In this document: positions 972-22,012 of the stretch, piece by piece
Numbering within the stretch: position 1 is the first letter of the stretch
How the letters are laid out: each line of letters begins with the position of its first letter
Source of the DNA: Candidatus Binatia bacterium
Lineage (GTDB): Bacteria > Desulfobacterota > Binatia > UBA9968
Assembly (NCBI GenBank): GCA_044869705.1
Contig: JBIOXP010000397.1
Span: forward strand, 1-40,659
Reading direction: 5' to 3'
Length of the DNA: 40,659 nt
The notes under the pieces: generated by a model
What the model saw: only the letters and a program-made list of their open reading frames with translations
What the model was told of the DNA's origin: nothing
Database searches by the model: none
Made by a program: the position numbers and the translations under genes

Positions 972-1808
972 TTATCGGACAAATTTTTGCCGAGTGAGTT
1001 GGCTATTTCGATCTATCTGGATGTCCACCTGGTGGGCTTCGACGCTCTTTTGAGTAGGGGACTCAGTCGCCGCGGTTAGGCTGTTTGCGAGTAGATTGGC
1101 GACGCAGCCGTAGCTCAGGTCGTTCATGTGCAGGCCGTCGGCGGAAACAATTTCTTCTATTTTATACCGACCGCTCGAGACCCAGTGCCGCATCAGGGCG
1201 AAGCGCCGGAAAACTGCAACGTTCATGTCCTTGGCCACCGCGTCGATGGAGTCGACGATCAGCAGGTGGGTAGGCCGGGCGATAATGCGCGGCGAGAACT
1301 GGGGATCCATCAGGACGACATCGGCGTGCGCGGACTTGAGACGATTTACCCCCTCGCGAATAGTCGCCGTGTATCCGTCTACGTCGTCACTGGTGAGCGT
1401 CTGATTACTGCCGGTCTGCCATATGACCAGCTGCGGATGGTAAGCCAGCACGTCACGCTCGAACCGAGCCAACATTTGGAACGCCTTTTCGCCACCAACT
1501 CCCTGATTCAGCACCGTCAACGCGAGCTGCGGGAAGTTTCGGTGAAGGTCTTCCGCGAGCAGCGCGGGATAGGTGTGAGCGGAATCCGAGGCGCCGATGC
1601 CTTTTGTCGAGGAAGAACCAATACTGACGATGACCAGTGGCTGGCCCGAACGAATCGCTCGGGCGGTACTCGGCAGAGGCACTTTGAAGCGAGTAATCTC
1701 CGGGGGCGCCGGGCAATCTGGCATTTTGTGTGACTCGGCCGCCGATCTGGTTACGACCAGCAATGCGATTAGTCCGGCGGCAATCGCCGACCAGCGAGTG
1801 GTTCTCAT
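972..1808 (-). CDS. secreted SGNH/GDSL-family hydrolase or acyl-transferase (all four catalytic blocks present)
   Basis: Signal-peptide-like N-terminus (MRTTRWSAIAAGLIALLVV). SGNH blocks: I 'IGSSST', II 'NQGVGG', III 'QTGSN', V 'DGLH'. ATGA overlap with the upstream gene at 1805-1808. Confidence 0.75.
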   Translation of the reverse strand: MRTTRWSAIAAGLIALLVVTRSAAESHKMPDCPAPPEITRFKVPLPSTARAIRSGQPLVIVSIGSSSTKGIGASDSAHTYPALLAEDLHRNFPQLALTVLNQGVGGEKAFQMLARFERDVLAYHPQLVIWQTGSNQTLTSDDVDGYTATIREGVNRLKSAHADVVLMDPQFSPRIIARPTHLLIVDSIDAVAKDMNVAVFRRFALMRHWVSSGRYKIEEIVSADGLHMNDLSYGCVANLLANSLTAATESPTQKSVEAHQVDIQIDRNSQLTRQKFVR

Positions 1809-2599
1809 CGGACACTCCCCGACTTGATTCCGGGGGCATTTAGGGCTGGCATCCCGCGCATTACGAAATCGGCCATTGCCCGCCCGATGCAGCCATAAAG
1901 CTTGGCGGCCACACGCCGGCGTTGATCAGTGTCAGTGACTCTTAAATCCAAGAACCCGCTCTCCGCCCAATGTCGCATCATACCATGGCGACGAAACAAC
2001 GGCACGTCGCTGGCGTCAGCGACTTGGCTCATGGCAGCAAGATAAGGCTCGAAATGAATTACGGCTTCGCTGTCGCGCGAAAACTGCATGTTCATCAGCA
2101 CGGTTTCGATCCCGGCAGTTCTGAAATCCTCTATTCCAGCCCGCAGCGTTTCCCTAAACTCATCGATATCGGTTCCGCGAACCGCTTCCATGGTGCCGGT
2201 CTCCCAAACGACAAGATTGGGCTTCATTGGGATGACCTCACGCTCCAGCCGTTCCGCGGCCCGCTTGGCCGTTTGCCGAGCCACGGCTAGATTGACGACC
2301 TTTATCCGCCCCGATGGGAATTTCTCGGCGAGCGCTGCGCCGAAACGCTCGGGCCAGGCGAGGTCGGGCTTTCCCGCGGCAATGCTCAAGCTCGAGGCGC
2401 CCCCGAGCACGACGATGACGACTTCTTGACCGTGAAGGATGGCCTTGGGGGTTTTCGTCAATTGCGGCTCAGAAATGTAAAAGCGCTCGGGCACGGAGCA
2501 GTCCCGCTCCTGGGCAAAAATCGGCGCCGGTGCGCAGAGAAGCCCGATTTTGCCGGCTGCGATCAGCGTAAAACTTCGGCTCATCAAACGAAGCATCAT
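1805..2599 (-). CDS. SGNH-like paralog with degenerate catalytic blocks (probable non-catalytic partner)
   Basis: Aligns without gaps to the 972-1808 product across blocks I-V. Start set at ATGATG 2599: signal-like MMLRLMSRSFTLIAAGKIGLL and an ATGA overlap with the opgC stop. The track start at 2674 was not used. Block I Ser is kept ('GGASS'). Block II 'NLAVAR', block III 'GTM' and block V 'DQRR' lack the Gly, Asn and His. Confidence 0.65.
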   Translation of the reverse strand: MMLRLMSRSFTLIAAGKIGLLCAPAPIFAQERDCSVPERFYISEPQLTKTPKAILHGQEVVIVVLGGASSLSIAAGKPDLAWPERFGAALAEKFPSGRIKVVNLAVARQTAKRAAERLEREVIPMKPNLVVWETGTMEAVRGTDIDEFRETLRAGIEDFRTAGIETVLMNMQFSRDSEAVIHFEPYLAAMSQVADASDVPLFRRHGMMRHWAESGFLDLRVTDTDQRRRVAAKLYGCIGRAMADFVMRGMPALNAPGIKSGSVR

Positions 2600-3885
2600 C
2601 GTCGTGTCCCTCCGCCGATTGCTGGTGCTCGGAGCGCCGGGCTCCCGGATACGCGCTGTGCAGCGGCGAACCACTCCATCAACGCCGCCACGCTGATCAT
2701 AATGGTAATACCGACCGCGGAGACAAAGATCTGCATCAATGTACCGCCGAAAAATTCATTGAGCACCAGGTGCGCCAGCACCGACAGCAGGATCGCGAGG
2801 CAAAAGATGTGGAGGGAATTTCGCCCGCAGATCAAAAAGGCCCGCGCACCGCGACTCGCCAAAAACTGCGCCTGGGGATGAATCAGGCGCGACACGAGGA
2901 GCGCAACCGCAAGCACATTGGCGAACCGGAGTAGCCCCAAATCCCCTTTGCTCAACAACGGCCACAAGAATTCGATGCTGACGGGAACCGGAAGCGGATC
3001 GTAGAGGTCGTGCAATGTCCAACTAAACCGGATCACAAATCCGGCAAGGGCGGCGGCTGCCGCGAAATAGAAGAGCCAACGCTGTTTAAGCGATGTGACG
3101 CCGCCGTGATGATTACCGCGCCAGCCGAGCCATCCACCCAGGAAGAACAGACACTGCCAGGCAAAGGGGTTGAAGAACCACACATGGTCCGGACCGGGAT
3201 AGGCCGACAGTGCTACCCTTTTGTCGAACTGAACCGCCAGCCAGAGCGCTGCTGACGCAAAAATCACAACCCACGGGCGGGAAATAAATCCCCTCAGCAC
3301 GAAAGGCAATACTGCGAGCAGGACGATGTAAAGCGGCAGGATATCCATGAAAGCCGGCTGGAATTGCAACATCAGCGCTTTCACGACGGCCAGTCCCGGC
3401 TCGTTGAGAAAATTGGCGGCGCCGAACTCCTCGGCGTAGATCGGGTTGTTGAGAGCACCGACCGTAAATCCGACGGTCGCCATGAACATCATGAAGAGAA
3501 ACACATGCGCGACGTAAAGTTGCCAAACCCGGTGATAGATGCGCACCCCGCTGAGCAAAAAACCATGACGCTCCATGGCGCGACCGTACACCATGCCGGC
3601 GGTATAACCAGAGATGAAAATGAACACCTCGGCGGCATCGGCGAACATCACCGATTGGATGGTAAATCGCGCTAGGATGTTATCGGGCATGTGGTCGATG
3701 AACATGCAAAAGAGAGCCAAGCCACGAAAAAAATCGAGCCGCAAGTCGCGCTGCGCAATCGACTGACTGCTCGGCACAGCAGTGATTTCTTCCGAGTTAC
3801 TTTTGTCCACCGGGGTCAACGGGATAGCCGGTGTGTCTCGGCGCTCGATTCTATCCGGGTCGTGTTGACGGGCACGAAGCATCAT
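2596..3885 (-). CDS. opgC: OpgC-family membrane O-acyl(succinyl)transferase
   Basis: Polytopic membrane protein, hydrophobic throughout. N-terminal 'RDLRLDFFRGLALFCMFIDHMPDN' is the typical OpgC / acyltransferase-3-like entry motif. Confidence 0.7.
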   Translation of the reverse strand: MMLRARQHDPDRIERRDTPAIPLTPVDKSNSEEITAVPSSQSIAQRDLRLDFFRGLALFCMFIDHMPDNILARFTIQSVMFADAAEVFIFISGYTAGMVYGRAMERHGFLLSGVRIYHRVWQLYVAHVFLFMMFMATVGFTVGALNNPIYAEEFGAANFLNEPGLAVVKALMLQFQPAFMDILPLYIVLLAVLPFVLRGFISRPWVVIFASAALWLAVQFDKRVALSAYPGPDHVWFFNPFAWQCLFFLGGWLGWRGNHHGGVTSLKQRWLFYFAAAAALAGFVIRFSWTLHDLYDPLPVPVSIEFLWPLLSKGDLGLLRFANVLAVALLVSRLIHPQAQFLASRGARAFLICGRNSLHIFCLAILLSVLAHLVLNEFFGGTLMQIFVSAVGITIMISVAALMEWFAAAQRVSGSPALRAPAIGGGTRR

Positions 3886-4125: not shown

Positions 4126-5586
4126 TTAACGTTGTTCAGAACCCTCAAGCTCACGCTGCTGGTACTCGATCACAGCGAGGAAATCAGTGGAGGCAACAAT
4201 CTTCAAGTTTTCCTGTGGGTGGTTAGTTAAAAACTCGCTCGCTTGGCGCTTGAACGTCAAACAAAGGAAAGCCTCATGCTTAGCGAGCAGCCGCTCCAGT
4301 CCTTGCCGATCGATGGTTTCCACATGATCGCCGAGATAAAAACGGGGCGCCGGGTCCGCTACACCAAACGTGTAAAGTAGCGGCACGCGCTTCGCAAAAA
4401 TCGGGGTGCTTCGCAGTAACCGAACTTCCGGGCTGAAATCGAGAATATCGGAACTTTCCACAAACGGGCCGCGGCCATTAGCGATGCCAGGCAGCACGGC
4501 CAGAGTAGCGAGCAGTAATACGGCAACGCGTACCCGGTGGTCATGGACGAGTCTCATGATGCCAAGAGCGGCTACGAGAGCCGCACCCGCAAAAACGGGC
4601 GTAAGATACCCGCCGATCTTGGTTCTTTGTAGGCTCACGATCGTGAATGCCGCCAACGGCAAGACGCTAACTCCGGCAAGTAACCGATCGCGTTTAAAAA
4701 TGGCGACTCCTACGGCAAGTGCTATTCCAGCCGCATGAACAGGAGCGAGGAATCCGGCCTTATCAAAATAGGTCTCCAGATAGAAGAACGAACTCCCTTC
4801 GTGACCCTCTAACGGCCGAAGAAAGCGGTTCACGATATGAAAACCGAGGTATTGATCAAGAAAAGAACGACCATGTGTGATTATCGACCAAACGTGCCAG
4901 GGTAGCGCTACCGCTAAAGCTACAAATGTGGCAACCGCTATCTCTTTGGAATGTAAAAAGCGGACGCCGTGCTTTGCGACGCCGATTGATAGCAATCCGG
5001 GGATAAACAGAAAGGCGGCCACCGACTTCGTGAGGATGGCGAGCCCAAAAATTGCGCCGGTTGAAATCATAAAAGACGGTCGTGTCTCACCGTGTAGGAG
5101 AAGAACCACCGAAAGCATTCCCAAAGTCGTGAGGGGAATGTCCATCATCGCGAGCCGGCTATATGCGACAAACTGAGGGACACCGAGCAGTAAGAGCGCG
5201 GCCAGCAGGCCAGTCGTTCGGTCACCCATGCGGCGCCCGGCCAAGTACTGAAGCGCGATGGCAGTCGTTCCAAACAGCGCGCTCGGAAGGCGCAGAGCAA
5301 ACTCTGTCAGACCGAATACAAAGGAGCTTGCGCCCATCAGCCAAAATGCAAAGGGCGGTTTCTCGAACCATAAGCGGTCGCCATAGCGCAAGGTCAGCCC
5401 AGGATGTTCGAGAAGTTCGCGAGTTACTACGCCATAGATTGCTTCGTCCCAATTCGCTAAACTTTCCAGCCCCAGGCCCGGGAGAATGACAATGGCGGCA
5501 ATGACGGCAAGGCCGACGGCTACGGCGATGTCGCGACCGTCGAAGACAGCTACGTGAAGTCCAGAGTGGCTGGCCGCGGATTTCAT
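4126..5586 (-). CDS. GT-C fold membrane glycosyltransferase (ArnT/PMT_2-like, GT39/GT83-type)
   Basis: About 10 or more hydrophobic helices. First-loop 'WDEAIYGVVTRELLEHPG...WFEKPPFAFWLMG' carries the DE..Y motif and 'KPP' block typical of ArnT/PMT-family enzymes. Soluble C-terminal domain. Confidence 0.75.
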   Translation of the reverse strand: MKSAASHSGLHVAVFDGRDIAVAVGLAVIAAIVILPGLGLESLANWDEAIYGVVTRELLEHPGLTLRYGDRLWFEKPPFAFWLMGASSFVFGLTEFALRLPSALFGTTAIALQYLAGRRMGDRTTGLLAALLLLGVPQFVAYSRLAMMDIPLTTLGMLSVVLLLHGETRPSFMISTGAIFGLAILTKSVAAFLFIPGLLSIGVAKHGVRFLHSKEIAVATFVALAVALPWHVWSIITHGRSFLDQYLGFHIVNRFLRPLEGHEGSSFFYLETYFDKAGFLAPVHAAGIALAVGVAIFKRDRLLAGVSVLPLAAFTIVSLQRTKIGGYLTPVFAGAALVAALGIMRLVHDHRVRVAVLLLATLAVLPGIANGRGPFVESSDILDFSPEVRLLRSTPIFAKRVPLLYTFGVADPAPRFYLGDHVETIDRQGLERLLAKHEAFLCLTFKRQASEFLTNHPQENLKIVASTDFLAVIEYQQRELEGSEQR

Positions 5587-5721
5587 ACCTATTTTGTTTG
5601 AGCCCTTAGCTCATCATCTGCTTGCCAATTGAAGTGTAGCCCCGTAGGTCGGCTCAGAGACGTTCACGGTGCAGATTCAACCGTCCATATCGGTGGAGCA
5701 AATTCGCGGATAACACCCACG

Positions 5722-7968
5722 TTATCGCCGTCCATCAAGGATCTCATAAGTATGTTCAAGGACAGCAAACCCCGTTGGGCGGAGGAGGCGAAGGCTGAGC
5801 TGAGAGTCGGCTTGCGGCGCGGTCCATTCAATGGCCCCCGACCACGTCGTACCCGAGGCGAGTGTGGGCAAGGCGATCGCGCCGTGCGCAAAGACCCTCC
5901 GATCGTCCAGCGCAGCCACCGTCCACGCCAGAGAATAGCCCTGTAAGCTGTAGGCGGGCAGATCACGCTCGACCGGACCGCGAGCCCGCAGGATCACCGC
6001 CGCACGGTAGCCGCCGTTGGGGGCCATGGACATGCGGACACTGTCGAGTACCGCGGGGGCATAAGCCTCACGCAGCACGGTCCAAGAGCCTCGCCGCTGA
6101 CGCTGCGCATCGACCACGCCCATCGCCAGCCCGTTTGGCGTACGATGGTCCTGGTAGGTAAAGAAGATGGCGCCCGCGATGAACGGCCGGCTCCGGAACG
6201 CCGGCAGTTGCTCACGGATGAGTTGCTGGCGCACGTGATCAGCGGCCGCGGAGTCTGACGCCTGCTCAGGGGGGACGGCGTAATACTGCGACTGGTCATC
6301 GCCGCCACGCGGATGGATCCACTCCCAGTGAGCGGCGAAACCGTACTCCGAAATAATCACGGGTTTATCGGGCCAGGCGGCGTGGATGGCATCGAGCACC
6401 GGACCGAGCTCGGCCTTGGGCCCGCTCCAGGTGCCGAAGTATGCGTTGATCATTACGATGTCTGCAAGGGCGGTCGCATCGGCCCAGGGCTGATGTCCCA
6501 GGCGGTTGGAAGCGAACCCGACGGGTCGTGTGGGGTCGAGGGTTTTCGCCAGCGCGATCATCTCGCGGACAAACTCGTGTCCAGCCGTGGTATCAGAGGC
6601 AAATTCGTTACCCACACTCCAGGCCCAGACGGCAGGATGATTGGCGTGGGAGCGGATCATCTCCTGGAGCTGCTGCCGTGCGAGGGCTCGGACGGGGGGG
6701 TACGATAACTGCGCTGCGGAGAGCTGCCAGACCGGGATCTCGGGGATCAGCAGTAAGCCGTGGCGGTCGGCATAGTCGAGGACAAACTCCGCCTGCGGGT
6801 AATGTATCGGACGGGAGAGAACGGCGTTCAAGCGCTTCACGTCGGCGAAGTCAGCCGCCATTACGGCGAAGGGCTCCGCTAGGCCGTACGCAGGCGAATC
6901 GGCGTGGCGCGTAAGCCCCACTAGACGCACGGGCTCGCCGTTCAGATAGAGGCGGGCACCGCGCTGCTCGATCGTTCGGATACCGAACGTCTCGTCCGCG
7001 GTGTGGAGGATCGGGCCGTCAACGGCTCCAAGTATGGCTTGCCAGCGATATAGATGCGGGTGATCGAAGTGCCAGAGAAGAGGGTCTGAGAGCGTGGCGG
7101 TCAGGGTGATCTCCTGGCTTGCACCTGGCGGGAGGTGGACAGCCGTGGTTGGGGTGGCGGTCAACACTGACGGTCCCGCGGTCTCGTGGCGCACTTCGCC
7201 CCTCAACAACCCATCCAGCGGTTGGTCCGAGGCGTTCGTCACCGTCACCGTGGTCGTGACGGTCGCCGTTTCGGCCCGGCCGACATCAACGAGGGCGGGG
7301 ACCGCCACCAGCCGCTGCTGCGCAATGAACGCCCGGCTCGAGACGTGCACGGTTGCCTCGCGCACGACCCCTCCATAATGCCACCAATCGTACGACCAAG
7401 GCGTGGCGAGGGCTGCTGGCAGGCGGTCCATGGCCCGCCGATTGTCCACCCGTACGGCTAGCACGTTTGCCGCTCCCGGTTGGGCCAGGCCGCTGACGTC
7501 GAACTCAAAGGGGGTATAGCCGCCTTCGTGCTCACCCAGATAGACCCCATTCCACCAGACCTGAGCTAGGTAGAAGACGGCGCCAAAGCGCAGGCGCACA
7601 TGCGCCTCCCGAGCCATAGGAGGCAGCGTGAGCTGCCGTCGGTACCAGCCGATGCCCGCATAGTCGGCATACTCCGGCATAATGTTCCAGGTGTGCGGCA
7701 CAGTTACGGACCGCCAGCCGGTGTCATCGAATGCCGGATTTGCCCAGCCCCGCGCGTGCCCCTCACCATCGGGGTCGATTGCAAAGTGCCAGGTACCAGA
7801 CAGTGACAGCGTCTCCGGGGATACAGCGACGAAAGGGCGGGCATTGGCCTGAAATGACGGGGCGGTTGGGATCGGGTGGTGAACTAAGGTACAGCCTCCC
7901 AGGTCACCGACCAAAATGGGTCCGAGGAGGAGCACAATCAGCAAAGTGCGTAGCTGCGTGGCGCACAT
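5722..7968 (-). CDS. glycoside hydrolase family 2 (beta-galactosidase/glucuronidase/mannosidase-type), secreted or lipoprotein
   Basis: GH2 N-domain motifs 'WRSVTVPHTWN', 'WYRRQLTLP', 'FYLAQVWWNGVYLGEHEGGYTPFEFDVS', 'NVLAVRVDN'. TIM-barrel 'HYPQ..FVLDYADRHGLLLIPEIPVW'. Acid/base 'WSVGNE', nucleophile 'IISEYG'. N-terminal signal with 'LGGC'. Confidence 0.85.
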   Translation of the reverse strand: MCATQLRTLLIVLLLGPILVGDLGGCTLVHHPIPTAPSFQANARPFVAVSPETLSLSGTWHFAIDPDGEGHARGWANPAFDDTGWRSVTVPHTWNIMPEYADYAGIGWYRRQLTLPPMAREAHVRLRFGAVFYLAQVWWNGVYLGEHEGGYTPFEFDVSGLAQPGAANVLAVRVDNRRAMDRLPAALATPWSYDWWHYGGVVREATVHVSSRAFIAQQRLVAVPALVDVGRAETATVTTTVTVTNASDQPLDGLLRGEVRHETAGPSVLTATPTTAVHLPPGASQEITLTATLSDPLLWHFDHPHLYRWQAILGAVDGPILHTADETFGIRTIEQRGARLYLNGEPVRLVGLTRHADSPAYGLAEPFAVMAADFADVKRLNAVLSRPIHYPQAEFVLDYADRHGLLLIPEIPVWQLSAAQLSYPPVRALARQQLQEMIRSHANHPAVWAWSVGNEFASDTTAGHEFVREMIALAKTLDPTRPVGFASNRLGHQPWADATALADIVMINAYFGTWSGPKAELGPVLDAIHAAWPDKPVIISEYGFAAHWEWIHPRGGDDQSQYYAVPPEQASDSAAADHVRQQLIREQLPAFRSRPFIAGAIFFTYQDHRTPNGLAMGVVDAQRQRRGSWTVLREAYAPAVLDSVRMSMAPNGGYRAAVILRARGPVERDLPAYSLQGYSLAWTVAALDDRRVFAHGAIALPTLASGTTWSGAIEWTAPQADSQLSLRLLRPTGFAVLEHTYEILDGRR

Positions 7969-8008
7969 AACGACTCACTCTTAGCTCTTTCCGAGGCGAG
8001 CGTGCGTA

Positions 8009-10335: not shown

Positions 10336-10358
10336 GACAGAACGTCCCTACAGGCCAA

Positions 10359-14328: not shown

Positions 14329-15114
14329 TCAAACATCGCTTAGCGGCTGATTGCCGGCAGTACGAGTGTCCAAGAAGTTGGTAAACGACCGAAGACTGAT
14401 TCCCATCTCGGTTAGCCCGGCTCGTACTCGCGGATCGCACAAGATGCTGAGCTCCTCGAGACGCTCCCGAGAGTACAGGGTCTGCAGGTCGCACTTCGAA
14501 GCTGGATGACATGCCAGCTCTGTCCAACCCGGAGGTAACATCTCCAAAATCCCAAGCAGGCCATTGACGCTGATCACGCCGGGCAAGGCGGTACCATCGT
14601 CCGCTTGCCCATAGAAGCTACCGCAATAAGTGACTTCCGGAGAGCAACTTCGGAGCGGAACTCCCAGTCGGCGCGCGATGTCCAAAAGAATGGCACCGAC
14701 TGGCTCACGCAGGTGCACATGCTGGTGGGAATCGAGGTGAGTCGGAGGATGTCCCAGCAGGCGATCGAACACACCGAGCTGATGGTTTATTTCGTCTCGC
14801 ACCTCTGTCTCGCTTTTTAATGACACTACGCTGTAGAGCGGCACCCATTCTCCGTCGCGCAAAATCTGTTCACCGAGATCGATATGTAGACCGATGCTCA
14901 AGGCCGGATACTCTCGGGCGTAAGCGGCCGCCTCAGCGGCAGCGGGCCAACGCACCATCAGACTGGCGCTGGTGACGATACCGTTTCGAGAAGCGCTGAT
15001 GATACCCTGGTTGATTCCACGGCTCTGCCCAAAATCATCCGCGTTGACAATCAAGTTTTTAGCGGCATTGGTTCCTTCGGAATGCACGCGATTATTAGAG
15101 ACGTCTGGGAGCAT
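14329..15114 (-). CDS. YdjC/ChbG/HpnK-family carbohydrate deacetylase
   Basis: 'LIVNADDFGQSRGINQGIISA..NGIVTSASLMV' and 'LDSHQHVH' are the hallmark metal/catalytic motifs of the YdjC family. Confidence 0.8.
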   Translation of the reverse strand: MLPDVSNNRVHSEGTNAAKNLIVNADDFGQSRGINQGIISASRNGIVTSASLMVRWPAAAEAAAYAREYPALSIGLHIDLGEQILRDGEWVPLYSVVSLKSETEVRDEINHQLGVFDRLLGHPPTHLDSHQHVHLREPVGAILLDIARRLGVPLRSCSPEVTYCGSFYGQADDGTALPGVISVNGLLGILEMLPPGWTELACHPASKCDLQTLYSRERLEELSILCDPRVRAGLTEMGISLRSFTNFLDTRTAGNQPLSDV

Positions 15115-16383: not shown

Positions 16384-17599
16384 TCATGGCCTCCTCCACC
16401 AGTCGGGTGAGCACTCGGCTCGCATCGAAATAGTCCGCAGCGATCTCACGGGCGGCCTTGGCATGCCGCCCATAGTTTGCTTCGATCTCCCTGATGGAAA
16501 CCACCGCATCCTCCAAAGTACTGAAGGCGAGAAGGCCCTCGCCTGTTGGAAGTACCGCGCTGAACCCGGTATCCTGAACCGCGACTGGCCGCCCCGCCGC
16601 TAAATAGCACGCCGACCGACAACTGAACCAACCTGGTCGTCCGACGACATAGCCATTTTTCGCGACGCTCCACTCGGCTTTAGAAGATTCGACGTAATTG
16701 CGATAGCTGTCGAGATCGGGACAGACCTCGGCTGGATCCACGACCCGCCATCCCTTACGGGCTAACAGGTGACGTGGAGTGCGGCGAGTTTTCCCGGCAT
16801 TGACAGCGATTTCCAGAGCCGTTGGAGCGATCAGCTGCGGCAACTCCTGGAACCGAACGAACTCGAGATCTTTTTGCCCATAGCTTCGATTGCCGTAGAC
16901 GACAGGCTTGTAACTCGTCCAGTTCATCACGGTAGTGAAAACCTCCCGAAATGGTTTTTCAGGATGCCACTCTGAGAGCACGATTGGCTGCCGTGTCGGG
17001 CGCCAGTGGTGACCAGTCTGAGGCACGTCCGACGAGAGAGATTCGCCGAAGCTAAACTGAACGTCATGGGCATCGATCCATTTGCGAAAATCGAGCTGAC
17101 CGCGCGCCAGCTTCAGCTGTGTGAAGACGGGATCCGAATCGATATAGGCCAGGCGCTTTACCTGTCGATATTCCTCGGGGCGCTCGATAGTTCCGGAAAC
17201 GTTGATGAGCAAGTCGGCGGAGCGAATAATCTCTTGTCGTTTCGCGTCAGAAAGCCCAAACCACTGCGATTGCCACGGGAAGCGATACGCCCACTGCCCA
17301 GCCAACCCATAACGCGACATGACAGTAGCGAGATATTGAACATTGAAATCACAGTCTTTGCCCAACCCGCCTTCTCGGGGGTTATAGGGCCATTGCCCGG
17401 TATCCTCGAGATAGTACACATCGTGGCCGAGTTGGGCGAGGCCGAGAACATACTGAAAGTAATCCCAAGTGACACCGCCTAGCGGGTACTGAGCGATGAG
17501 TCCTGTGACGATGATGCGTAGTCTCGATCTCACCTGAGCTGAAACTAACCCACGTCGCCCCAAACGCTGTGGATCTGGGAGGCCCGGGACGAAGGACAT
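16370..17599 (-). CDS. GT-B-like glycosyltransferase, uncharacterised family (paralog 1)
   Basis: 'IIVTGLIAQYPLGGVTWDYFQYVLGLAQLGHDVYYLED' N-domain. C-terminal 'RSACYLAAGRPVAVQDTGFSAVLPTGEGLLAFSTLEDAV..IREIEANY'. 14-nt overlap with paralog 2. Confidence 0.5.
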   Translation of the reverse strand: MSFVPGLPDPQRLGRRGLVSAQVRSRLRIIVTGLIAQYPLGGVTWDYFQYVLGLAQLGHDVYYLEDTGQWPYNPREGGLGKDCDFNVQYLATVMSRYGLAGQWAYRFPWQSQWFGLSDAKRQEIIRSADLLINVSGTIERPEEYRQVKRLAYIDSDPVFTQLKLARGQLDFRKWIDAHDVQFSFGESLSSDVPQTGHHWRPTRQPIVLSEWHPEKPFREVFTTVMNWTSYKPVVYGNRSYGQKDLEFVRFQELPQLIAPTALEIAVNAGKTRRTPRHLLARKGWRVVDPAEVCPDLDSYRNYVESSKAEWSVAKNGYVVGRPGWFSCRSACYLAAGRPVAVQDTGFSAVLPTGEGLLAFSTLEDAVVSIREIEANYGRHAKAAREIAADYFDASRVLTRLVEEAMNGRD

Positions 17600-17610: not shown

Positions 17611-19392
17611 TTATTTTATCAGCCGGATTTTGCGCTGCTCTTCATGAAACGCGAACTGAGTTCGATACATCGATGCAAAGACTCCCCCGCGGCGCAGTAG
17701 CTCGGCGAACGTGCCTTGCTCTGCAATGCTGCCATCGCGCAAAACCAGGATGAGATCAGCCTGGCGGATGGTGGAGAGACGGTGTGCGATGATGAAGGTG
17801 GTTCTCCCCGCCATGAGACGCTGTAGCCCCTCCATGATGAGCGCCTCGGTTTCGGTATCGACAGAAGACGTGGGCTCGTCGAGGATCAGTATCGGTGCAT
17901 CGAGCAAAACCCCACGCGCAATCGTGAGGCGTAATTTCTGTCCTTCCGACAATGTGGCTGCCTGTTCTCCCACGACCGTGTCGTACTTTTCCGGTAGCTC
18001 TTCTATGAAATCGTGCACCTGGGCCACCTTCGCGGCGGCCGTAACTTCCTCCAAAGAAGCTTCCGGTCGGCCATAGGCGATGTTTTCCCGAATGCTGAAG
18101 GGGAAGAGCACAGGCGGTTGAAGAACCATGGCCATTTGCCGGCGCAAAGATTTCAGTTGAAACTGGCGGATATCGACACCGCCGATTGTGATTCGGCCGG
18201 ACTGCGGATCATGGAACCGCAGTAGCAGACTGACCAATGTTGATTTTCCCGCGCCCGTCGGACCGACAATAGCCACTTTCGTCCCTGGCGCGATCTGCAA
18301 ATTAATATTTTTTAGAACAGGTTTGGCTGAATCATACCCAAATATAACCTGCTCGAAAGAGATCTCAGTTTTCGCGCTTTGGTTCTCCAGCGCCTTATGC
18401 CCATCGGGCACGACCTGTTGCGAGTCGAGAATGTCGAAGGCTCTGCGGACGCCGATTTTTGCGCTTTGAACCAGCCCATAGGTCTCGAAAATACTATGAA
18501 GTGGCGCATAAAGAGACGCGAGATAGGAGGTAAACACAACCATGTCGCCAACCGAGAGTGCTCCGGACAAAACGTGCCGCGTACCTATCCATAAGACCGC
18601 GGCGGTTCCCGCTGCAATCGTCACGTTCACCACGGCAGAATAAAAATTCTGCAGATTAAAGAGGCGCAGATCCGCTGCCAGACTCTCGGTGCTGGCGTTG
18701 ACAAAGCGCCGCTCTTCATCCTCTTCTTTGGTAAAAGCCTGAATAACGCGTATTCCTGACAGCGTTCGCTGCACGAGAGAATAGACTAGACTCTCCTTAT
18801 GGCGCGCGTGCGCGGCCGCAGACGACATTTTCTTGTTTAGGAGCCCAATGGTAACGAACAATGCGGGGCATACCACGAGAGCCAATAACGTGAGATAGAG
18901 ATCCAACGAGAGCATCACGACAAACATGCCCGATAGGAGCACCAAAGCGGACAGGACGGAAAAGAATCCGTTCATCGTCAGCGTTTGAATGCCTAGGGTA
19001 TCGGCCGTGATCCGATACATGAGATCACCGATCTGCTGGCGGGTATGAAAAGAGAGGGATAGGCGCTGGAGGTGGCTGTACAAATCGCGACGCAGATCAT
19101 TTACCATTCCCTGCCCGATCCGTATCGTTGTGTAGTCGTTTAGCACGCGGAGCGCGCCCACGAGCAAATAAATAAGAACAAGGCTTATGCAAGCGGCCAC
19201 CAGGAGGGTCTCTGCCGACCAACTAAGACGAATCCCGAACGGAAGCGGGTGATTGCTCAGAATATTGTCAATGATAATCTTGAGCGGCCACGGCTTGAGG
19301 AGCTCAAGCGCGCTAATTACGATAACTTGCGCGAGCGCGAAAACGAAAGCTGGCCAATACGGCTTTAGGTAAGAACGAACCGTGCGTTTCAT
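17611..19392 (-). CDS. ABC exporter, fused TMD-NBD half-transporter (MsbA/NdvA class)
   Basis: Six-helix TMD, then Walker A 'GPTGAGKST', signature 'LSEGQ', Walker B 'ILILDEPTS', H-loop 'IIAHRLST'. Start set at ATG 19392 (MKRTVRSYLKPYW) because the longer track ORF would overlap the upstream gene. Confidence 0.9.
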   Translation of the reverse strand: MKRTVRSYLKPYWPAFVFALAQVIVISALELLKPWPLKIIIDNILSNHPLPFGIRLSWSAETLLVAACISLVLIYLLVGALRVLNDYTTIRIGQGMVNDLRRDLYSHLQRLSLSFHTRQQIGDLMYRITADTLGIQTLTMNGFFSVLSALVLLSGMFVVMLSLDLYLTLLALVVCPALFVTIGLLNKKMSSAAAHARHKESLVYSLVQRTLSGIRVIQAFTKEEDEERRFVNASTESLAADLRLFNLQNFYSAVVNVTIAAGTAAVLWIGTRHVLSGALSVGDMVVFTSYLASLYAPLHSIFETYGLVQSAKIGVRRAFDILDSQQVVPDGHKALENQSAKTEISFEQVIFGYDSAKPVLKNINLQIAPGTKVAIVGPTGAGKSTLVSLLLRFHDPQSGRITIGGVDIRQFQLKSLRRQMAMVLQPPVLFPFSIRENIAYGRPEASLEEVTAAAKVAQVHDFIEELPEKYDTVVGEQAATLSEGQKLRLTIARGVLLDAPILILDEPTSSVDTETEALIMEGLQRLMAGRTTFIIAHRLSTIRQADLILVLRDGSIAEQGTFAELLRRGGVFASMYRTQFAFHEEQRKIRLIK

Positions 19393-19405: not shown

Positions 19406-22012
19406 TCACAGCGTGTCTTTAGCTTCCACCGGCACGAATTCGAGCTTGTGCGCCAACGATTCCATAACATGGTAGAGCAGGCGGCCAAGGCGGAACTTCT
19501 GGTAGAGAATAGCGCCGGCGTGAACAATGCCGATCGAGGCTGCTGCGAGGGCGAGTTGAGTCATATCCAGCGATGCTGCGATCGTTGTCGCGGCGGCGTA
19601 AACCCCCAGGCAACCCGCGGAAACTCTGGACATCCGCAGCGCGCAGCGCACTCTCAACAGACGCTTCGCCCCGCCGTGATTCTCGACGGCGGTTTTGATC
19701 TGGGCTTTGGCCCATGGCCCTTGGCAAATTTCCAAGTCCCATTGGCTCCAGCCCTGATCCATCGCGATGAGATACTTACGCGGCAGCAGAAATTCCATCA
19801 CCGCATGCAGCAGACTTTCCTTTTCCTGTCCACGCTCATTCCAGTACGACAGATAGAACGCCGCTTCATGCCACAAGATGCGTACTTCCTGCCGGGTGCC
19901 GTTGAATTCGAACGGCTTCACCTCGCGAAAGCGACGCAGACGCCAGCGATAACGCTCCAGCGTACGAATCAGCGGCCCGATATAAATTAACAACGCGATG
20001 AGAAGCGTTGCACGCCATCCCTGGAAAGGCGGCATCACTCGAGCATGCAGTGCGCTTGTGACGCAACGACTGAGCGTCAGTCCGAACGGCGCCAGCCCGA
20101 GCCAGAACCAGTCGCCTAATACCAGCGCGCAAGCCAAGAGCGCGAGCGAAAGCAAATTCCATTCGAGGGTCAGCGGCAGGCACGCAACCACGGACGGGGG
20201 AGGCTGGTATAGAGTCTGGAAAAGACCGCGCCCGAAAACTCCGGAATAAATCCGTTGCTGATGGCTCGCCAGGAAGGAAGATAAATCACCGTAGATTCTG
20301 CCGAACCAACGCGATTGACCCAGCACGTTAAAACGGCTGGGATGCTTGAAAAACAGCAGAGTTTCCGCCTTGCCGTAACCGCGTTGCTGCTTCAGATAAT
20401 CGCGCACGGTATTGCGGCGAAAGTGCCAGACCACCGCAGCCGGAGAGAAACCGATCTTGTAACCTTTGTTCTGCAGACGCCAGCACAGATCCACATCATC
20501 GCCTGCCGCACGGAAAATCGGATCGAATCCGGAGATCGCTTTAAGTGCGTCGTGACGAAACGCCATGTTGCAACCCGGAATGTGCTCCGCGACTTCGTCA
20601 TCCAGCAAGACGTGCGCTGGCGCGCCGGGTGAAACCGCGACACAAGACGCCACAAACGAGTCGTCGGGCGGCGTCAAATTAGGTCCGCCCACCGCAGCAA
20701 AGTCGGATGATTGAAAACGCGCCACCAAGTAGGTGAGCCAATCCGCATCGACCATGCAGTCGGCGTCGGTAAAAGCGATGATATCGCCGCCGGCTGCTCT
20801 GATGCCGACATTGCGGGCTTCGCTCAGGCCTTTATTGTCCTGATTGATGAGCCGAATGTACGAATAACCTTCGGCGATTTGCCGCGTCCGATCGGTCGAG
20901 CCATCGTTCACAACGACAACTTCGTAGTCGGGATAGTTAAGTTTCTTCAGCGACCCAAGACACGAATCGAGGGTACGCTCGCCATTGTAAACGCATACAA
21001 TGACCGAGACTTTAGGATGCGCGGGAAGCGGCGGCGGCAGCGTGCCGCCATAGTATTGTTGGACTGCCCCGAATGCAGGTTTTTTGTCTCGATAACGATC
21101 AACCAATCCGAAGGCCCAATCCTCGACCTGAAATCCCTCCGGACCGGAGTACGCGTGCCAATCGTCGGTCCAGGAAAAGACCACTGTTCCCGCCACTCCC
21201 GATTCAAAGCTGGCGCGCAATTGCCAGGATAGCGCGTCGGCCTGAAACTGGCGGCCCTGTCCTATCGAATCAATGCCGATTTCTGTCAGGACCAGCGGTC
21301 GGTCTCCGGCAAGATTATGGAGGTGAGATAAATAACGGCGAAAGTCTTCTTCACGATGAAGGTAAACATTGAAAGCCACGAAGTCCAAGAAATCGGTTTC
21401 GAGATATTCAGTCGATGGAAAGTTGGCATAACTCACCAGCGCGCCGGCATCGCCGCTCTTGGCCGTATCCACGAGAGTAGCGAGAAACCTGCGTATCTTT
21501 TTGGCGCCGTACCAGCGTACGATTTCCGGAGGAATCTCGTTGCCAACGAGATAAGCGAAGATCGCAGGGTGGGAGCTGCAGGTGCCTACTGCATGGGCGA
21601 TGGTTTCGCGAATTTCCGACCGCGTGCGCTTGGAATCCAGAAACGAAATGTGCTGCGGCCAAGGAATACCGACGATCACGCGAAGACCATGGGCCGCCGC
21701 TTTGTCGAGAATCGATTTAGGCGGAACGGTAAAAGTACGAAGGCAATTAACTCCGAGCTCTGCCATAAGCGAGAAGTCCAAGTCTACCTTCGCAAGCTCC
21801 GGAAATGGCACGCCGCCGGCGTTCGGGGCAAACGGTCCGTACGTCACCCCTTTGACGAAAAACTTTTGCTCTTTACGGAAAAAGAACCGTCCACGCTGAT
21901 CGATTCTCTCGAGGACTAAGGGTTTGCTCGAGCGGCGAACTTCGATCAGCGGCAAGCTCGGTACGCTTATGTCAGGCGTACCATGTAGCTCGAGCAACGA
22001 GGGCATCGACAT
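19406..22012 (-). CDS. fusion protein: N-terminal clan-GH-A-like barrel + GT2 glycosyltransferase + C-terminal multi-TM module (putative glycan synthase)
   Basis: aa ~45-320: 'FFVKGVTYGP', 'LVGNEIPPE' (E159), 'LVLTEIGID' (E244). aa ~334-555: 'VSVIVCVYNGERTL', 'VVVNDGSTD', 'FTDADC', 'GCNMAFR', 'GDDVDLCWRL', 'KQQRGYGKAE'. aa ~605-868: about five hydrophobic helices. Confidence 0.8.
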   Translation of the reverse strand: MSMPSLLELHGTPDISVPSLPLIEVRRSSKPLVLERIDQRGRFFFRKEQKFFVKGVTYGPFAPNAGGVPFPELAKVDLDFSLMAELGVNCLRTFTVPPKSILDKAAAHGLRVIVGIPWPQHISFLDSKRTRSEIRETIAHAVGTCSSHPAIFAYLVGNEIPPEIVRWYGAKKIRRFLATLVDTAKSGDAGALVSYANFPSTEYLETDFLDFVAFNVYLHREEDFRRYLSHLHNLAGDRPLVLTEIGIDSIGQGRQFQADALSWQLRASFESGVAGTVVFSWTDDWHAYSGPEGFQVEDWAFGLVDRYRDKKPAFGAVQQYYGGTLPPPLPAHPKVSVIVCVYNGERTLDSCLGSLKKLNYPDYEVVVVNDGSTDRTRQIAEGYSYIRLINQDNKGLSEARNVGIRAAGGDIIAFTDADCMVDADWLTYLVARFQSSDFAAVGGPNLTPPDDSFVASCVAVSPGAPAHVLLDDEVAEHIPGCNMAFRHDALKAISGFDPIFRAAGDDVDLCWRLQNKGYKIGFSPAAVVWHFRRNTVRDYLKQQRGYGKAETLLFFKHPSRFNVLGQSRWFGRIYGDLSSFLASHQQRIYSGVFGRGLFQTLYQPPPSVVACLPLTLEWNLLSLALLACALVLGDWFWLGLAPFGLTLSRCVTSALHARVMPPFQGWRATLLIALLIYIGPLIRTLERYRWRLRRFREVKPFEFNGTRQEVRILWHEAAFYLSYWNERGQEKESLLHAVMEFLLPRKYLIAMDQGWSQWDLEICQGPWAKAQIKTAVENHGGAKRLLRVRCALRMSRVSAGCLGVYAAATTIAASLDMTQLALAAASIGIVHAGAILYQKFRLGRLLYHVMESLAHKLEFVPVEAKDTL

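Follow-up and report, generated by a model that had tools for sequence, protein, structure and literature searches.

Sixteen consecutive genes run on the minus strand from 22012 down to 972 of the window, the whole 40,659-nt stretch of DNA that was analysed. The list of open reading frames and direct reading of the sequence agree on this layout, and coding sequence takes up 19,953 of the 21,041 bases between 972 and 22012 (95%), bearing out the tight packing described in the initial annotation. Neighboring genes overlap by ATGA at 1805–1808, 2596–2599 and 10715–10718 (the last of these joins the GT2 stop to the start of the DUF2304 gene), and the sequence also bore out the 14-nt overlap between the ParA and ParB genes at 16370–16383. 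A fourth overlap described as ATGA, at 13525–13528 between the NodS-like and GH50-like genes, is indeed 4 nt long, but its letters are GTGA, since GTG is the start codon of the gene downstream. The remaining short gaps are 11, 13, 15, 23 and 40 nt, and five wider gaps measure 135, 147, 150, 240 and 314 nt.

Table 1. Features of the cluster and its upstream flank, in order of transcription.
Feature	Position	Strand	Evidence or remark
Gene-poor, lower-GC stretch upstream of Syn	22013–22791		no convincing ORF
Syn, 868 aa, first cluster gene	19406–22012	-	Pfam GT2 families, weak GH2_C match
ABC half-transporter, fused TMD-NBD, MsbA/NdvA/PglK class	17611–19392	-	Pfam ABC_membrane, ABC_tran
ParA, 409 aa, GT-B fold, GT4-like glycosyltransferase	16370–17599	-	AF2 model, Foldseek
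ParB, 417 aa, second GT-B glycosyltransferase	15130–16383	-	ParA paralogue
YdjC-family carbohydrate deacetylase, cytoplasmic	14329–15114	-	Pfam YdjC 163 bits
NodS-like class I SAM methyltransferase, cytoplasmic	13525–14178	-	Pfam NodS 64.6 bits (cut-off 24)
GH50-like periplasmic lipoprotein, 656 aa, lipobox LLAC, GTG start	11558–13528	-	PDB match
PpgS/GacI-like GT2, 231 aa, no TM helix	10715–11410	-	NCBIfam PpgS 169 bits (cut-off 370)
DUF2304 small membrane protein, GacJ/Rv3632 family	10359–10718	-	Pfam DUF2304 83 bits
Class I SAM methyltransferase, PpgS cassette	9706–10335	-	Pfam Methyltransf_11
GTC2, PMT_2-type GT-C glycosyltransferase	8009–9391	-	Pfam PMT_2 37 bits
GH2 periplasmic lipoprotein, lipobox LGGC	5722–7968	-	Pfam GH2 N, middle and C domains
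GTC1, ArnT-like GT-C glycosyltransferase	4126–5586	-	Pfam PMT_2 87 bits, PMT 50 bits
OpgC-family membrane acyltransferase, TmAT/AT3 superfamily	2596–3885	-	Pfam OpgC_C 357 bits
SGNH2, periplasmic SGNH-fold protein, degenerate catalytic motifs	1805–2599	-	Pfam NonGDSL 212 bits
SGNH1, periplasmic SGNH esterase/transferase, last cluster gene	972–1808	-	Pfam NonGDSL 188 bits, Lipase_GDSL_2

Nearly all functional labels in the initial annotation were confirmed by Pfam, NCBIfam or PDB searches or by a structure model. None of the 16 proteins matched an NCBIfam model at its curated cut-off, so all specificities are guesses. ParA, ParB, YdjC, the PpgS-like GT2, both methyltransferases and, within Syn, the N-terminal domains (all without signal peptide or TM helix) were assigned to the cytoplasmic side. 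The two GH and the two SGNH proteins, which carry signal peptides or lipoboxes, were assigned to the periplasmic side; both GT-C enzymes, OpgC, the DUF2304 protein and the ABC protein are polytopic. An AsmA-family gene at 23814–26279 indicates an outer membrane. The stretch ahead of Syn, which had no match in an Rfam search, is presumed to be the promoter or regulatory region and the cluster boundary. Similarity to related loci ends inside the 5' end of Syn (21757–21913) and thus does not reach upstream of this gene.

Syn joins a clan GH-A TIM barrel (approximately aa 36–330, with PDB 9fz9 matching aa 36–344) to a GT2 domain (approximately aa 330–590) and C-terminal membrane helices (approximately aa 608–686 and 818–836). 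All 28 homologues compared (37–75% identity) keep E159 (GNE) and E244 (TEIG) of the GH domain, together with the GT2 domain's DxD motif, D505/D506 and QQxxY. The Glu that was exchanged for Ala in PDB 9g4n, as compared with 9fz9, lines up with E244. From its sequence, the barrel is apparently catalytically competent and is predicted to sit in the cytoplasm, as neither a signal peptide nor a TM helix precedes the GT2 domain. The AF2 model of Syn had a pLDDT of 48, and the acceptor half and membrane region had no detectable PDB relatives. Syn may be processive, may glycosylate a lipid, or may have another role.

In most related loci Syn adjoins the ABC gene, which most likely starts at Met46 of the longest ORF (position 19392). 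The protein is then 593 aa long and the gap 13 nt wide, in line with homologues. Its NCBIfam scores (MsbA_rel 441 bits, MsbA 426 bits, NdvA-type PRK13657 391 bits) are all under the cut-offs, and it presumably exports or flips a cytoplasmic product. ParA had nothing above cut-off in Pfam. Its AF2 model (pLDDT 84) was matched by Foldseek to the GT4 enzymes tll1591, PimA, BshA and MshA with probability 1.0 at ∼12% identity. No other protein of the system is as conserved as ParA, which belongs to an uncharacterised GT-B family and has relatives in at least 575 GTDB species genomes and 634 clusters (50% identity) at E≤1e-30. ParB is 37% identical to ParA over 386 aa (E 2e-84), and close relatives keep the pair.

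Syn, the ABC exporter and one to five copies of the GT-B family form a three-gene core, and this linkage is seen in genomes whose labels span more than 10 phyla. Both Syn and ABC lie upstream in 26 of the 35 loci that have a ParA homologue of ≥50% identity with ≥7 kb of sequence ahead of it. We found no characterised homologue of this core. Close relatives share an eight-gene unit of Syn, ABC, ParA, ParB, YdjC, the NodS-like methyltransferase, the GH50-like lipoprotein and a GTC1-type GT-C; it recurs in loci L004, L084 and L163, while L086, L091 and L162 have parts of it. MAGs that carry the label Candidatus Binatia or ‘delta proteobacterium’ are the nearest relatives. Three accessory cassettes, PpgS-like GT2/DUF2304/methyltransferase/GTC2, GH2, and OpgC/SGNH2/SGNH1, occur in some of the relatives only. 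The 16 genes are an eight-gene unit plus three swappable cassettes, and not one co-conserved set. The neighborhood comparison proposed in the initial annotation gave a divided answer: chance juxtaposition is rejected, because parts of the locus are co-conserved elsewhere, but relatives keep only eight genes as a unit. The cassettes may also be transcribed separately from the core, as their variability and the five gaps of 135–314 nt would allow; promoter and terminator scans of the cluster did no better than shuffled sequence.

Within the eight-gene unit, YdjC scored under the cut-off against both chitin disaccharide deacetylase (134 bits) and HpnK (122 bits) in NCBIfam. The Pfam NodS match spans only profile positions 14–119 of 201, and the NCBIfam NodS score was 64.7 bits against a cut-off of 300. 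In close relatives the NodS-like gene always occurs with YdjC; the GH50-like gene comes after it in relatives. The YdjC and NodS-like genes occur together in ∼15 related loci, with or without the PpgS cassette, which ties them to the core product and not to the lipid-sugar donor. The GH50-like protein, which has a signal peptide and lipobox, had no Pfam or NCBIfam match, and GH50 beta-agarases (PDB 4bq2/5z6p) match its aa 269–437 (E 2e-20). GTC1 matches ArnT (PDB 5ezm, E 9e-21), has homologues of 63–69% identity in L004, L052, L083 and L084, and aligns over its full length with the terminal GT-C of L163 at 30% identity (E 1e-43), the motif WDEAIY being common to both. By sequence, GTC1 and the GT-C that closes the conserved unit are of one orthologue type.

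GTC2 is not orthologous to this terminal GT-C and travels with the PpgS cassette; L092 carries a 64% identical homologue inside its cassette, where the methyltransferase is likewise syntenic with PpgS, DUF2304 and GTC2. The GT2 of this cassette, predicted to be a polyprenyl-phosphate HexNAc/hexose synthase, scored 116 bits against NCBIfam AglJ, and its nearest PDB entries are DPMS (5mlz) and ArnC. The GT2 and DUF2304 pair had been labelled GtrB/ArnC-like, but PpgS/GacI-GacJ fits better, given the PpgS score and the precedent that GacJ stimulates GacI and Rv3632 stimulates PpgS (10.1101/180810). The GH2 gene has a GC content of 64.4%, compared to 49–60% in the other 15 genes, and positions 5663–8030 share 87.7% nucleotide identity with L084 (flanks 74–76%). 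It forms a separate cassette that looks recently exchanged; NCBIfam beta-galactosidase/beta-glucuronidase models gave 214–224 bits, under cut-off.

The OpgC-SGNH2-SGNH1 triad recurs in L120 and partly in L127. By their motifs, one SGNH protein is intact and the other degenerate: SGNH1, which has a signal peptide, retains the Ser-Gly-Asn-His set (GSSS, GVGG, GSN, DGLH), and SGNH2 has GGAS in place of GSS, GTM in place of GSN and no DxxH, and so is without the nucleophile position and the Asn. In Dickeya, succinylation of OPGs depends on OpgC (PMC4726272). The OpgC family belongs to the AT3 clan/superfamily, in which an SGNH domain beside AT3-family proteins performs the final acyl transfer, and such O-acylation of exported glycans is standard (PMC12423673). 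The three genes read as a split AT3-SGNH O-acyltransferase.

Scanning the entire window with Pfam revealed no Wzx, Wzy, Wza, PCP or priming phosphoglycosyltransferase, in agreement with the initial annotation, and no polyprenyl-P-sugar flippase of GtrA, Wzx or ArnEF type is present. Nucleotide-sugar genes had also been reported missing from the window; an SDR epimerase/dehydratase-family ORF at 28423–29304 (+) is a possible one, but it lies 6 kb outside the cluster, amid unrelated monooxygenase genes.

We give an even chance to the following scheme for an envelope-glycan assembly line in this uncultured diderm soil bacterium. At the cytoplasmic face, Syn, as a membrane-anchored GT2 with a GH-A barrel, would build a HexNAc-containing oligo- or polysaccharide with ParA and ParB; YdjC would remove N-acetyl groups, and the NodS-like enzyme would methylate the product, probably on the freed amine. 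The MsbA/NdvA-type half-transporter would carry it to the periplasmic face, where the ArnT-like GT-C enzymes would attach side-chain sugars from polyprenyl-phosphate-sugar donors. A dedicated donor would come, in this genome, from the PpgS-like GT2 and its DUF2304 helper, as in GacI/GacJ/GacL. OpgC would pass an acyl group (succinyl or acetyl) through the membrane to SGNH1, which would esterify the glycan, with SGNH2 possibly a non-catalytic partner. The GH50-like and GH2 lipoproteins would trim or release the product.

The initial annotation rightly recognized a glycan-building locus, its individual gene assignments are correct, and the tailored periplasmic or surface glycan it proposed is plausible. 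Its view that this gene set is not that of any characterised locus also stands as far as it was checked: targeted literature searches turned up none, and no NCBIfam model reached its cut-off. However, it overstated the oddity of combining modules from different systems. The streptococcal group A carbohydrate has an ABC-exported backbone with GacI/GacJ/GacL-type side chains from polyprenyl-P-sugar (10.1101/180810), the homologous PpgS/Rv3632/Rv3779 set decorates mycobacterial arabinogalactan (PMC9671496), and exported glycans are also routinely O-acylated by AT3-family and SGNH proteins; the PpgS cassette follows the GacI/GacJ/GacL side-chain logic. Cytoplasmic assembly, ABC export and periplasmic decoration already occur together in known systems, so the design as such is not alien. 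This is a real envelope-glycan cluster, and its overall design follows known systems.

The cluster consists of 16 consecutive genes on the minus strand, running from 22012 down to 972, as established from the ORF list and by direct reading of the gene junctions; the single-strand run proposed in the initial annotation is therefore present. Coding sequence accounts for 19,953 of the 21,041 bases (95%), counting ABC, the gene for the MsbA/NdvA-type exporter, from a start at 19392. This start, Met46 of the longest ORF, is most likely the correct one; as seen in homologues, it yields a protein of 593 aa and a gap of 13 nt after Syn, the synthase gene that opens the cluster. Five intergenic gaps measure 11–40 nt and five measure 135–314 nt, and three gaps of 135–240 nt coincide with the cassette boundaries described below. 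The 4-nt ATGA overlaps proposed at 1805–1808, 2596–2599 and 10715–10718 are present, as is the 14-nt overlap at 16370–16383. The overlap at 13525–13528 is also real, but it reads GTGA and not ATGA because the downstream gene starts with GTG. Pfam and NCBIfam searches bore out nearly all of the functional labels originally assigned, and none of the 16 proteins reached the curated cut-off of an NCBIfam model.

Genes of the minus-strand cluster in order of transcription, with the features on which each label is based
Gene	Position	Strand	Features
Syn (synthase)	19406-22012	-	weak GH2-type TIM barrel, GT2 domain and C-terminal membrane helices
ABC (exporter)	17611-19392	-	fused ABC half-transporter; top scores to MsbA-related and NdvA-type models, under every cut-off
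ParA	16370-17599	-	GT-B protein, paralogue of ParB (37% identical), no Pfam family
ParB	15130-16383	-	GT-B protein, paralogue of ParA, no Pfam family
YdjC	14329-15114	-	deacetylase
NodS-like	13525-14178	-	methyltransferase
GH50-like	11558-13528	-	lipoprotein of 656 aa without a Pfam family; GH50 agarases matched over residues 269-437 (E 2e-20)
PpgS-like	10715-11410	-	231-aa GT2; best model mycobacterial PpgS, 169 bits (cut-off 370)
DUF2304	10359-10718	-	small membrane protein
MT	9706-10335	-	methyltransferase
GTC2	8009-9391	-	PMT_2 GT-C
GH2	5722-7968	-	lipoprotein
GTC1	4126-5586	-	ArnT-like GT-C; PDB 5ezm, E 9e-21
OpgC	2596-3885	-	OpgC_C, 357 bits
SGNH2	1805-2599	-	SGNH-fold protein
SGNH1	972-1808	-	SGNH-fold protein

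Hydropathy and signal-peptide inspection placed seven enzymes or domains in the cytoplasm, one exporter, three polytopic transferases and one small helper in the membrane, and four cluster proteins, two of them with lipoboxes, in the periplasm. An AsmA-family gene lies near the cluster and indicates that the organism is diderm. As the initial annotation had stated, Pfam detected none of Wzx, Wzy, Wza, a PCP protein or a priming phosphoglycosyltransferase in the whole window, and Wzx with Wzy, Wzm with Wzt, PCP/OPX proteins and the priming enzyme were likewise undetected there when NCBIfam was included. Its companion statement, that nucleotide-sugar genes are missing from the window, has one possible exception, an ORF of the NAD-dependent epimerase/dehydratase (SDR epimerase) family at 28423–29304 on the plus strand, which is the sole nucleotide-sugar enzyme candidate in the window. 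This ORF lies outside the cluster and is probably unrelated to it, because its neighbours are luciferase-like monooxygenase, flavin reductase and TctC-type genes.

The cluster is clearly delimited. Upstream, similarity to related loci ends inside the 5′ end of Syn. Between Syn and a divergently oriented gene at 22792 lie 780 nt of lower GC content (22013–22791) with no convincing ORF, and the promoter and regulatory elements of the cluster could reside here. Promoter and terminator scans gave counts no better than those in shuffled sequence, and a search for riboswitches or leaders returned no Rfam match anywhere, including upstream of Syn. Beyond the other end of the cluster, a plus-strand ORF cut by the window edge (1–966) has a Pfam match (E 5e-26) to the animal haem peroxidases, a family that is uncommon in bacteria.

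Comparison with related loci, mostly from metagenome-assembled genomes (MAGs), divided the cluster into a conserved unit and a set of accessory genes. Close relatives share the order Syn, ABC, ParA, ParB, YdjC, an optional methyltransferase gene, NodS-like and GH50-like, followed by a gene for an ArnT/PMT-type GT-C. This eight-gene block is found in L004, L084 and L163, and in part in L003, L052, L086, L091 and L162. The L163 cluster ends after its terminal GT-C, which is 30% identical to GTC1 over its full length (E 1e-43, with WDEAIY in both) and essentially unrelated to GTC2. In L004 and L052, GTC1 comes about 330 bp after the GH50-like gene, so the stretch corresponding to window 5588–11557 is absent from both; in L084, only the GH2 gene occupies the site between GH50-like and GTC1. 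Judged from gene order in these relatives, the window is an eight-gene unit (Syn through GH50-like, plus GTC1) with three cassettes, two of which (PpgS-like/DUF2304/MT/GTC2, and GH2) sit at one hot spot between GH50-like and GTC1, while the third (OpgC/SGNH2/SGNH1) follows GTC1.

Window 5663–8030, comprising GH2 and its non-coding flanks, is 87.7% identical at the nucleotide level to L084 12142–14516, compared with 74–76% for the flanking matches and 74–84% locus-wide. The GC content of GH2 is 64.4% (GC3 73.8%) versus 49–60% for the other 15 genes. This pattern suggests a recent lateral exchange of a single gene. The PpgS cassette recurs in L092, where GH50-like is followed by PpgS-like, DUF2304, MT and GTC2 and then by unrelated genes. 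Within this cassette, a non-coding gap of 314 nt separates MT from GTC2 in the window (9392–9705); its L092 counterpart is about 210 nt, and the L092 MT ORF is shorter (141 aa vs 209 aa). No small ORF was found in 9392–9705 at a 30-aa threshold, and no cluster gap holds an ORF of at least 100 aa. OpgC and SGNH2, with or without SGNH1, follow GTC1 in L004 and L052. In L120 (1.3–4.0 kb) and L127 (0–1.9 kb), a stand-alone GH50-like gene has OpgC/SGNH genes a few kb away on the opposite strand; L120 carries both SGNH1 and SGNH2, in L127 only SGNH2 was detected, at the contig edge, and Syn, ABC and ParA are out of view in both. It may therefore be that the GH50-like protein and the acylation cassette act on a common substrate irrespective of the core.

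This mosaic raises the question of whether the window holds one system or a juxtaposition of two or three independent ones lying head to tail, with the Arn/Gac-like decoration and the OpgC/SGNH acylation each acting on a glycan other than that of the core unit. Such a reading accords with the absence of the cassettes from close relatives that retain the core, with the deviant GC content and higher identity of the GH2 cassette, with the gaps at cassette boundaries, and with the fact that GH50-like homologues of 54–65% identity mostly stand alone. Nevertheless, we regard it as very unlikely. The same cassettes recur beside the same core or GH50-like genes in different arrangements and different relatives (GTC1 in L004, L052, L083 and L084; OpgC/SGNH in L004, L052, L120 and L127; the PpgS block in L092; GH2 in L084 and L088–L090), the 16 genes are co-directional and densely coding, and the insertion site falls within the conserved unit. 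Moreover, decorating enzymes need an exported glycan as substrate, and the core provides one. Co-conservation within the cluster holds for the core and the eight-gene unit, which recur in relatives, and does not extend to all 16 genes as one set, the cassettes varying among relatives.

We surveyed linkage by searching all 16 window proteins against 81 loci with tblastn. Requiring ≥50% identity of the ParA homologue and ≥7 kb of sequence upstream left 35 loci, and in 26 of these both Syn and ABC lay upstream of ParA. Copies of the ParA family numbered from 1 to 5 or more per locus (median 2), and every core locus also had an ABC exporter. All-against-all ORF clustering identified Syn, ABC and ParA as the only families widely common among the loci; the remaining genes are lineage-specific tailoring functions, including classical GT4 enzymes, a pyruvyl transferase, APH-type kinases, a UXS-like epimerase, a hexapeptide acyltransferase and methyltransferases. 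A core accompanied by variable tailoring genes is a pattern typical of a variable surface or periplasmic glycan.

Soil metagenomes contain many Syn homologues at 70–91% identity, and ParA has homologues at 74–91% identity. Scanning GTDB with an alignment of ParA recovered relatives from at least 575 species genomes, whose labels include Acidobacteriota, Binatia, Nitrospirota, Chloroflexota, Planctomycetota, Methylomirabilota, Actinomycetota, Alpha- and Gammaproteobacteria, Bacteroidota, Gemmatimonadota and Verrucomicrobiota. MAGs make up nearly all of the carriers, Tateyamaria pelophila being one isolate; its strain DSM 17270 (L035) has ParA and ABC genes, and Asaia-related genomes (L051) carry Syn, ABC and three copies of ParA. 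In a library of 50%-identity representatives, 634 clusters matched ParA at E≤1e-30. Syn homologues 74–76% identical and ParA homologues 83–90% identical bear labels of different phyla (Binatia, Udaeobacter, Terriglobales, Pyrinomonadaceae, Planctomycetaceae, Tectomicrobia); identities of 74–90% across differently labelled MAGs could mean horizontal transfer or mis-binned short contigs.

Syn has no signal peptide and no hydrophobic segment ahead of residue 608, and its TIM barrel and GT2 domain are therefore both cytoplasmic. Similar to Pseudomonas NdvB, Syn combines an N-terminal clan GH-A TIM barrel and a membrane-bound GT2 in one polypeptide. However, the GH17 domain of NdvB is periplasmic, behind a signal peptide and with TM helices before the GT2. 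The window also encodes a separate ABC exporter, and Pfam found no GH17 match in Syn. An NdvB-type enzyme with a periplasmic GH domain was considered for Syn and ruled out by topology. In 28 Syn homologues (37–75% identity), E159 (GNE), E244 (TEIG), the GT2 DxD (D416/D418), D505/D506, Q542, Q543 and Y546 are invariant. The nearest solved structure to the N-terminal domain (window 21023–21925) is 9fz9, an unpublished “GH2 catalytic domain-containing protein,” whose INE motif aligns with E159. The mutant entry 9g4n differs from 9fz9 by a Glu to Ala change (TTEFG to TTAFG) at exactly the residue aligned with E244, so the depositors regard this Glu as the catalytic nucleophile. A literature search on PDB entries 9FZ9, 9G5G and 9G4N found no relevant paper. 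Because E159 and E244 are invariant and align with the INE motif of 9fz9 and the Glu mutated in 9g4n, the GH-A domain of Syn appears to be a retaining, catalytically competent glycosidase or transglycosylase of clan GH-A.

Profile searches placed the nucleotide-binding half of the Syn GT2 near soluble GT2 enzymes such as chondroitin polymerase, and the GH part near GH2 barrels and GH158; they returned nothing significant in the PDB for the acceptor half and TM region. Pfam matched Glyco_trans_2_3 (57 bits) and GT21, the ceramide glucosyltransferase family (E 1e-11), and the invariant motif is QQxxY, not the QxxRW of the processive membrane GT2s, with their own translocation channel, of synthase-dependent exopolysaccharide systems. 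An AF2 model of full-length Syn built from 26 homologues (69–91% identity) had a pLDDT of 48 and was unusable.

The Cgs/Cgt (NdvA, ChvA)/Cgm system of Brucella and rhizobia likewise joins a cytoplasmic synthase with hydrolase-type domains, an MsbA-like ABC exporter and a periplasmic OpgC-family modifier. By this precedent, which is documented (PMC4077732), the window would specify an OPG-like or cyclic periplasmic glucan: Syn would make a beta-glucan chain, its GH-A transglycosylase would limit, branch or cyclise it, an NdvA-like ABC would export it and OpgC would succinylate it. Glucan synthases fused to a GH domain exist, as in the GH17 + GT2 of Pseudomonas NdvB (PMC10237404), the GH catalytic Glu pair of Syn is invariant, some Syn homologues weakly match GH72 glucanosyltransferases, and OpgC belongs to the OpgC/Cgm acyltransferase family, matching Pfam OpgC_C over profile positions 1–356 of 358. 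The NdvA-type glucan exporter model PRK13657 gives the ABC protein 391 bits, well under the cut-off of 733; the score of this protein against TIGR01192, 316 bits, is also below the cut-off of 585, and MsbA-related models score higher. Thus, an NdvA/ChvA-type exporter was not identified by either model. In contrast to the GT84 and GH94 of Cgs, Syn combines GT2 with clan GH-A, and Pfam and NCBIfam found no Cgs-type GT84/GH94 synthase, OpgH or OpgG among the cluster proteins. The GH domain of Syn is on the opposite side of the membrane from the GH17 of NdvB. The GT-B enzymes, deacetylase and methyltransferases are linked to the core here, whereas OpgC is not conserved among relatives, several of which keep the core without it (L084, L163). 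One to five GT-B enzymes would be superfluous for a homoglucan, and the core-linked YdjC and NodS-like methyltransferase point to HexNAc, not glucose. We therefore consider a periplasmic glucan quite unlikely.

ParA, the most conserved of the enzymes, belongs to a family with no Pfam model; its match to PF13524 is marginal. Its AlphaFold model (pLDDT 84) matches GT4-type GT-B glycosyltransferases with a probability of 1.0 at only ~12% identity. Representatives of the family include many long fusions of 800–2148 aa, some with the ParA-like domain in mid-protein. In the arrangement we favor, a single tailored-glycan system, Syn, ParA and ParB would assemble the glycan at the cytoplasmic side of the membrane.

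YdjC and the NodS-like methyltransferase co-occur in about 15 related loci with or without the PpgS cassette, and because of this independence we assign their action to the core product. Deacetylation by YdjC of a polyprenyl-P-HexNAc made by the PpgS-like enzyme was also considered and ruled out, as YdjC is kept in relatives that lack the PpgS cassette. The NodC/NodB/NodS/NodIJ system, to which the pairs PgaC/PgaB and HpnI/HpnK are analogous, similarly links a membrane GT2 (Glyco_tranf_2_3/Glyco_trans_2_3) with an N-deacetylase, a NodS-family methyltransferase and an ABC exporter. By analogy, this linkage suggests that a HexNAc residue would be N-deacetylated and then N-methylated. Unlike in Nod systems, the deacetylase here is YdjC-type and not NodB/CE4, there is no NodA, and the exporter is not of the NodIJ type; the Nod equivalogs were not matched, the NodC model giving only 47 bits against a cut-off of 550 and the NodS model 65 bits against 300.

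The HpnI (GT2)/HpnK (YdjC) pair is also the precedent for a membrane glycolipid, in which Syn would glycosylate a hopanoid, ceramide or diacylglycerol-like lipid, ParA and ParB would extend the head group, YdjC would deacetylate it as HpnK does after HpnI, and the ABC protein would flip the product outward for further decoration. NCBIfam matches echo this pair (YdjC to HpnK, 122 bits; Syn to HpnI, 31 bits), the GT21 match of Syn fits it, and MsbA-like exporters do flip lipids. However, both Hpn scores are far under their cut-offs, lipid-synthesis genes are linked in none of the loci examined, and two periplasmic GHs plus a cytoplasmic GH domain suit a polymer better than a head group, leaving a glycolipid a poor prospect.

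Returning to the tailored glycan, the ABC half-transporter would then carry the product outward, where decoration could begin. The PpgS-like GT2 has no TM helix, and its nearest PDB entries are DPMS and ArnC. Its gene is immediately followed, through the ATGA overlap, by that of the DUF2304 protein (Pfam 83 bits). A short TM-free GT2 beside a DUF2304 helper (here with the 4-nt overlap) and a GT-C is the arrangement of GacI/GacJ/GacL and PpgS/Rv3632/Rv3779. In these experimentally established modules, the GT2 makes polyprenyl-P-HexNAc in the cytoplasm under stimulation by the DUF2304 protein, and the sugar is then attached by the GT-C to a polymer that has been exported (10.1101/180810; PMC9671496); the group A Streptococcus backbone is thought to be exported by an ABC transporter (10.1101/180810). 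A GT-C is present here as well, GTC2 traveling with the cassette in both the window and L092 and GTC1 being ArnT-like. The PpgS-like GT2, DUF2304 protein and GT-C would likewise supply a side-chain sugar from a polyprenyl-P donor. The logic of the Gac system, with a cytoplasmic backbone, ABC export and decoration outside from a polyprenyl-P-sugar, would be the same. In contrast to the Gac system, the exporter is a fused MsbA-type half-transporter and not Wzm/Wzt-like as GacD/E, the GacO/WecA primer, the rhamnosyltransferases and a GacK-type flippase are absent, the organism is diderm, and the cassette is accessory, missing from close relatives. No Pfam family of a polyprenyl-P-sugar flippase (GacK/Wzx, GtrA or ArnEF type) was found in any window ORF.

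The position of GTC1 admits another route, in which a lipid-linked oligosaccharide is built and tailored on its carrier, flipped by a PglK/MsbA-type ABC and transferred by GTC1 to protein, lipid A or another acceptor. A GTC1-type GT-C closes the unit even in relatives without a nearby PpgS-type donor gene, the exporter is a fused half-transporter as are MsbA and PglK, and with such a route no Wzx, Wzy or priming phosphoglycosyltransferase would be expected. There are also weak matches to archaeal Agl proteins (AglJ, 116 bits, for the small PpgS-like GT2; AglG, 84 bits, for Syn; Agl23/STT3 for the GT-C enzymes). Yet GTC1 resembles ArnT/PMT, which transfer single sugars from polyprenyl monophosphate, and not STT3/PglB, the DD, QQxxY, Glyco_trans_2_3 and GT21 features of Syn are typical of GT2s with hydroxyl acceptors and not polyprenyl phosphate, and no acceptor protein is evident. 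This route is unlikely, if less so than a glucan or a glycolipid.

The third cassette would act on the exported glycan by O-acylation. Succinylation of periplasmic glucans depends on OpgC (PMC4726272). The final transfer in AT3-SGNH fusions falls to the SGNH domain, and OpgC and AT3 belong to one transmembrane acyltransferase superfamily (PMC12423673); in Pfam, OpgC_C shares clan CL0316 with AT3. The OpgC, SGNH2 and SGNH1 genes are joined by two ATGA overlaps. SGNH1 keeps all four catalytic blocks (GSSS, GVGG, GSN, DGLH) with intact Ser/Gly/Asn/His, and SGNH2 lacks the nucleophile position as well as the Asn and DxxH. Because of the superfamily membership of OpgC and the role of SGNH domains in the fusions, OpgC and the translationally coupled SGNH2/SGNH1 can be read as a split AT3-SGNH O-acyltransferase. 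As in OafA/OafB, OatA and the OpgC succinyltransferase, a TmAT/AT3 membrane protein would be coupled to an intact periplasmic SGNH, but here the functions are on separate polypeptides, the membrane part is of the OpgC_C type, and a degenerate SGNH paralogue lies between. Finally, the GH50-like and GH2 lipoproteins may trim or release the product, by analogy with the periplasmic hydrolases of synthase-dependent systems (Bcs, Pga, Alg, Pel). An in-operon periplasmic GH, as in those systems, is encoded here by GH50-like within the conserved unit, and by GH2 as well.

Literature searches aimed at this gene combination turned up neither a description of it nor a characterised locus with the gene set, in agreement with the initial annotation. 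The design principle, with cytoplasmic assembly, ABC export, GT-C decoration from lipid-linked sugars and O-acylation by an AT3-type protein with SGNH, is established; only the core of a GH-A/GT2 Syn, an MsbA-like ABC and a new GT-B family is undescribed. Because each step has known precedent, current concepts are unchallenged. Going further, we speculate, while judging it unlikely, that the Syn-ABC-GT-B core, which occurs in genomes labelled as more than ten phyla, is an undescribed class of envelope-glycan machinery, in which a cytoplasmic, active GH-A transglycosylase limits, branches or cyclises the chain before MsbA-like export. It would be a third independent version of “synthase plus built-in glycosidase,” after Cgs and NdvB, and would yield a cationic, N-methylated amino-sugar glycan in the Binatia-like clade.

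Should the tailored-glycan model prove correct, many uncultured soil lineages would possess a conserved glycan system not yet characterised; by MAG label these lineages include Binatia, Acidobacteriota, Verrucomicrobiota, Planctomycetota, Chloroflexota and Actinomycetota. The best-conserved enzyme of the system would be a member of a GT-B family without a Pfam model, and the synthase would combine a GT2 with a cytoplasmic glycosidase-type domain. The window illustrates how glycan loci diversify, with decoration cassettes entering one hot spot inside a conserved unit, and it offers a useful lead for the glycobiology of uncultured bacteria and for enzyme discovery.
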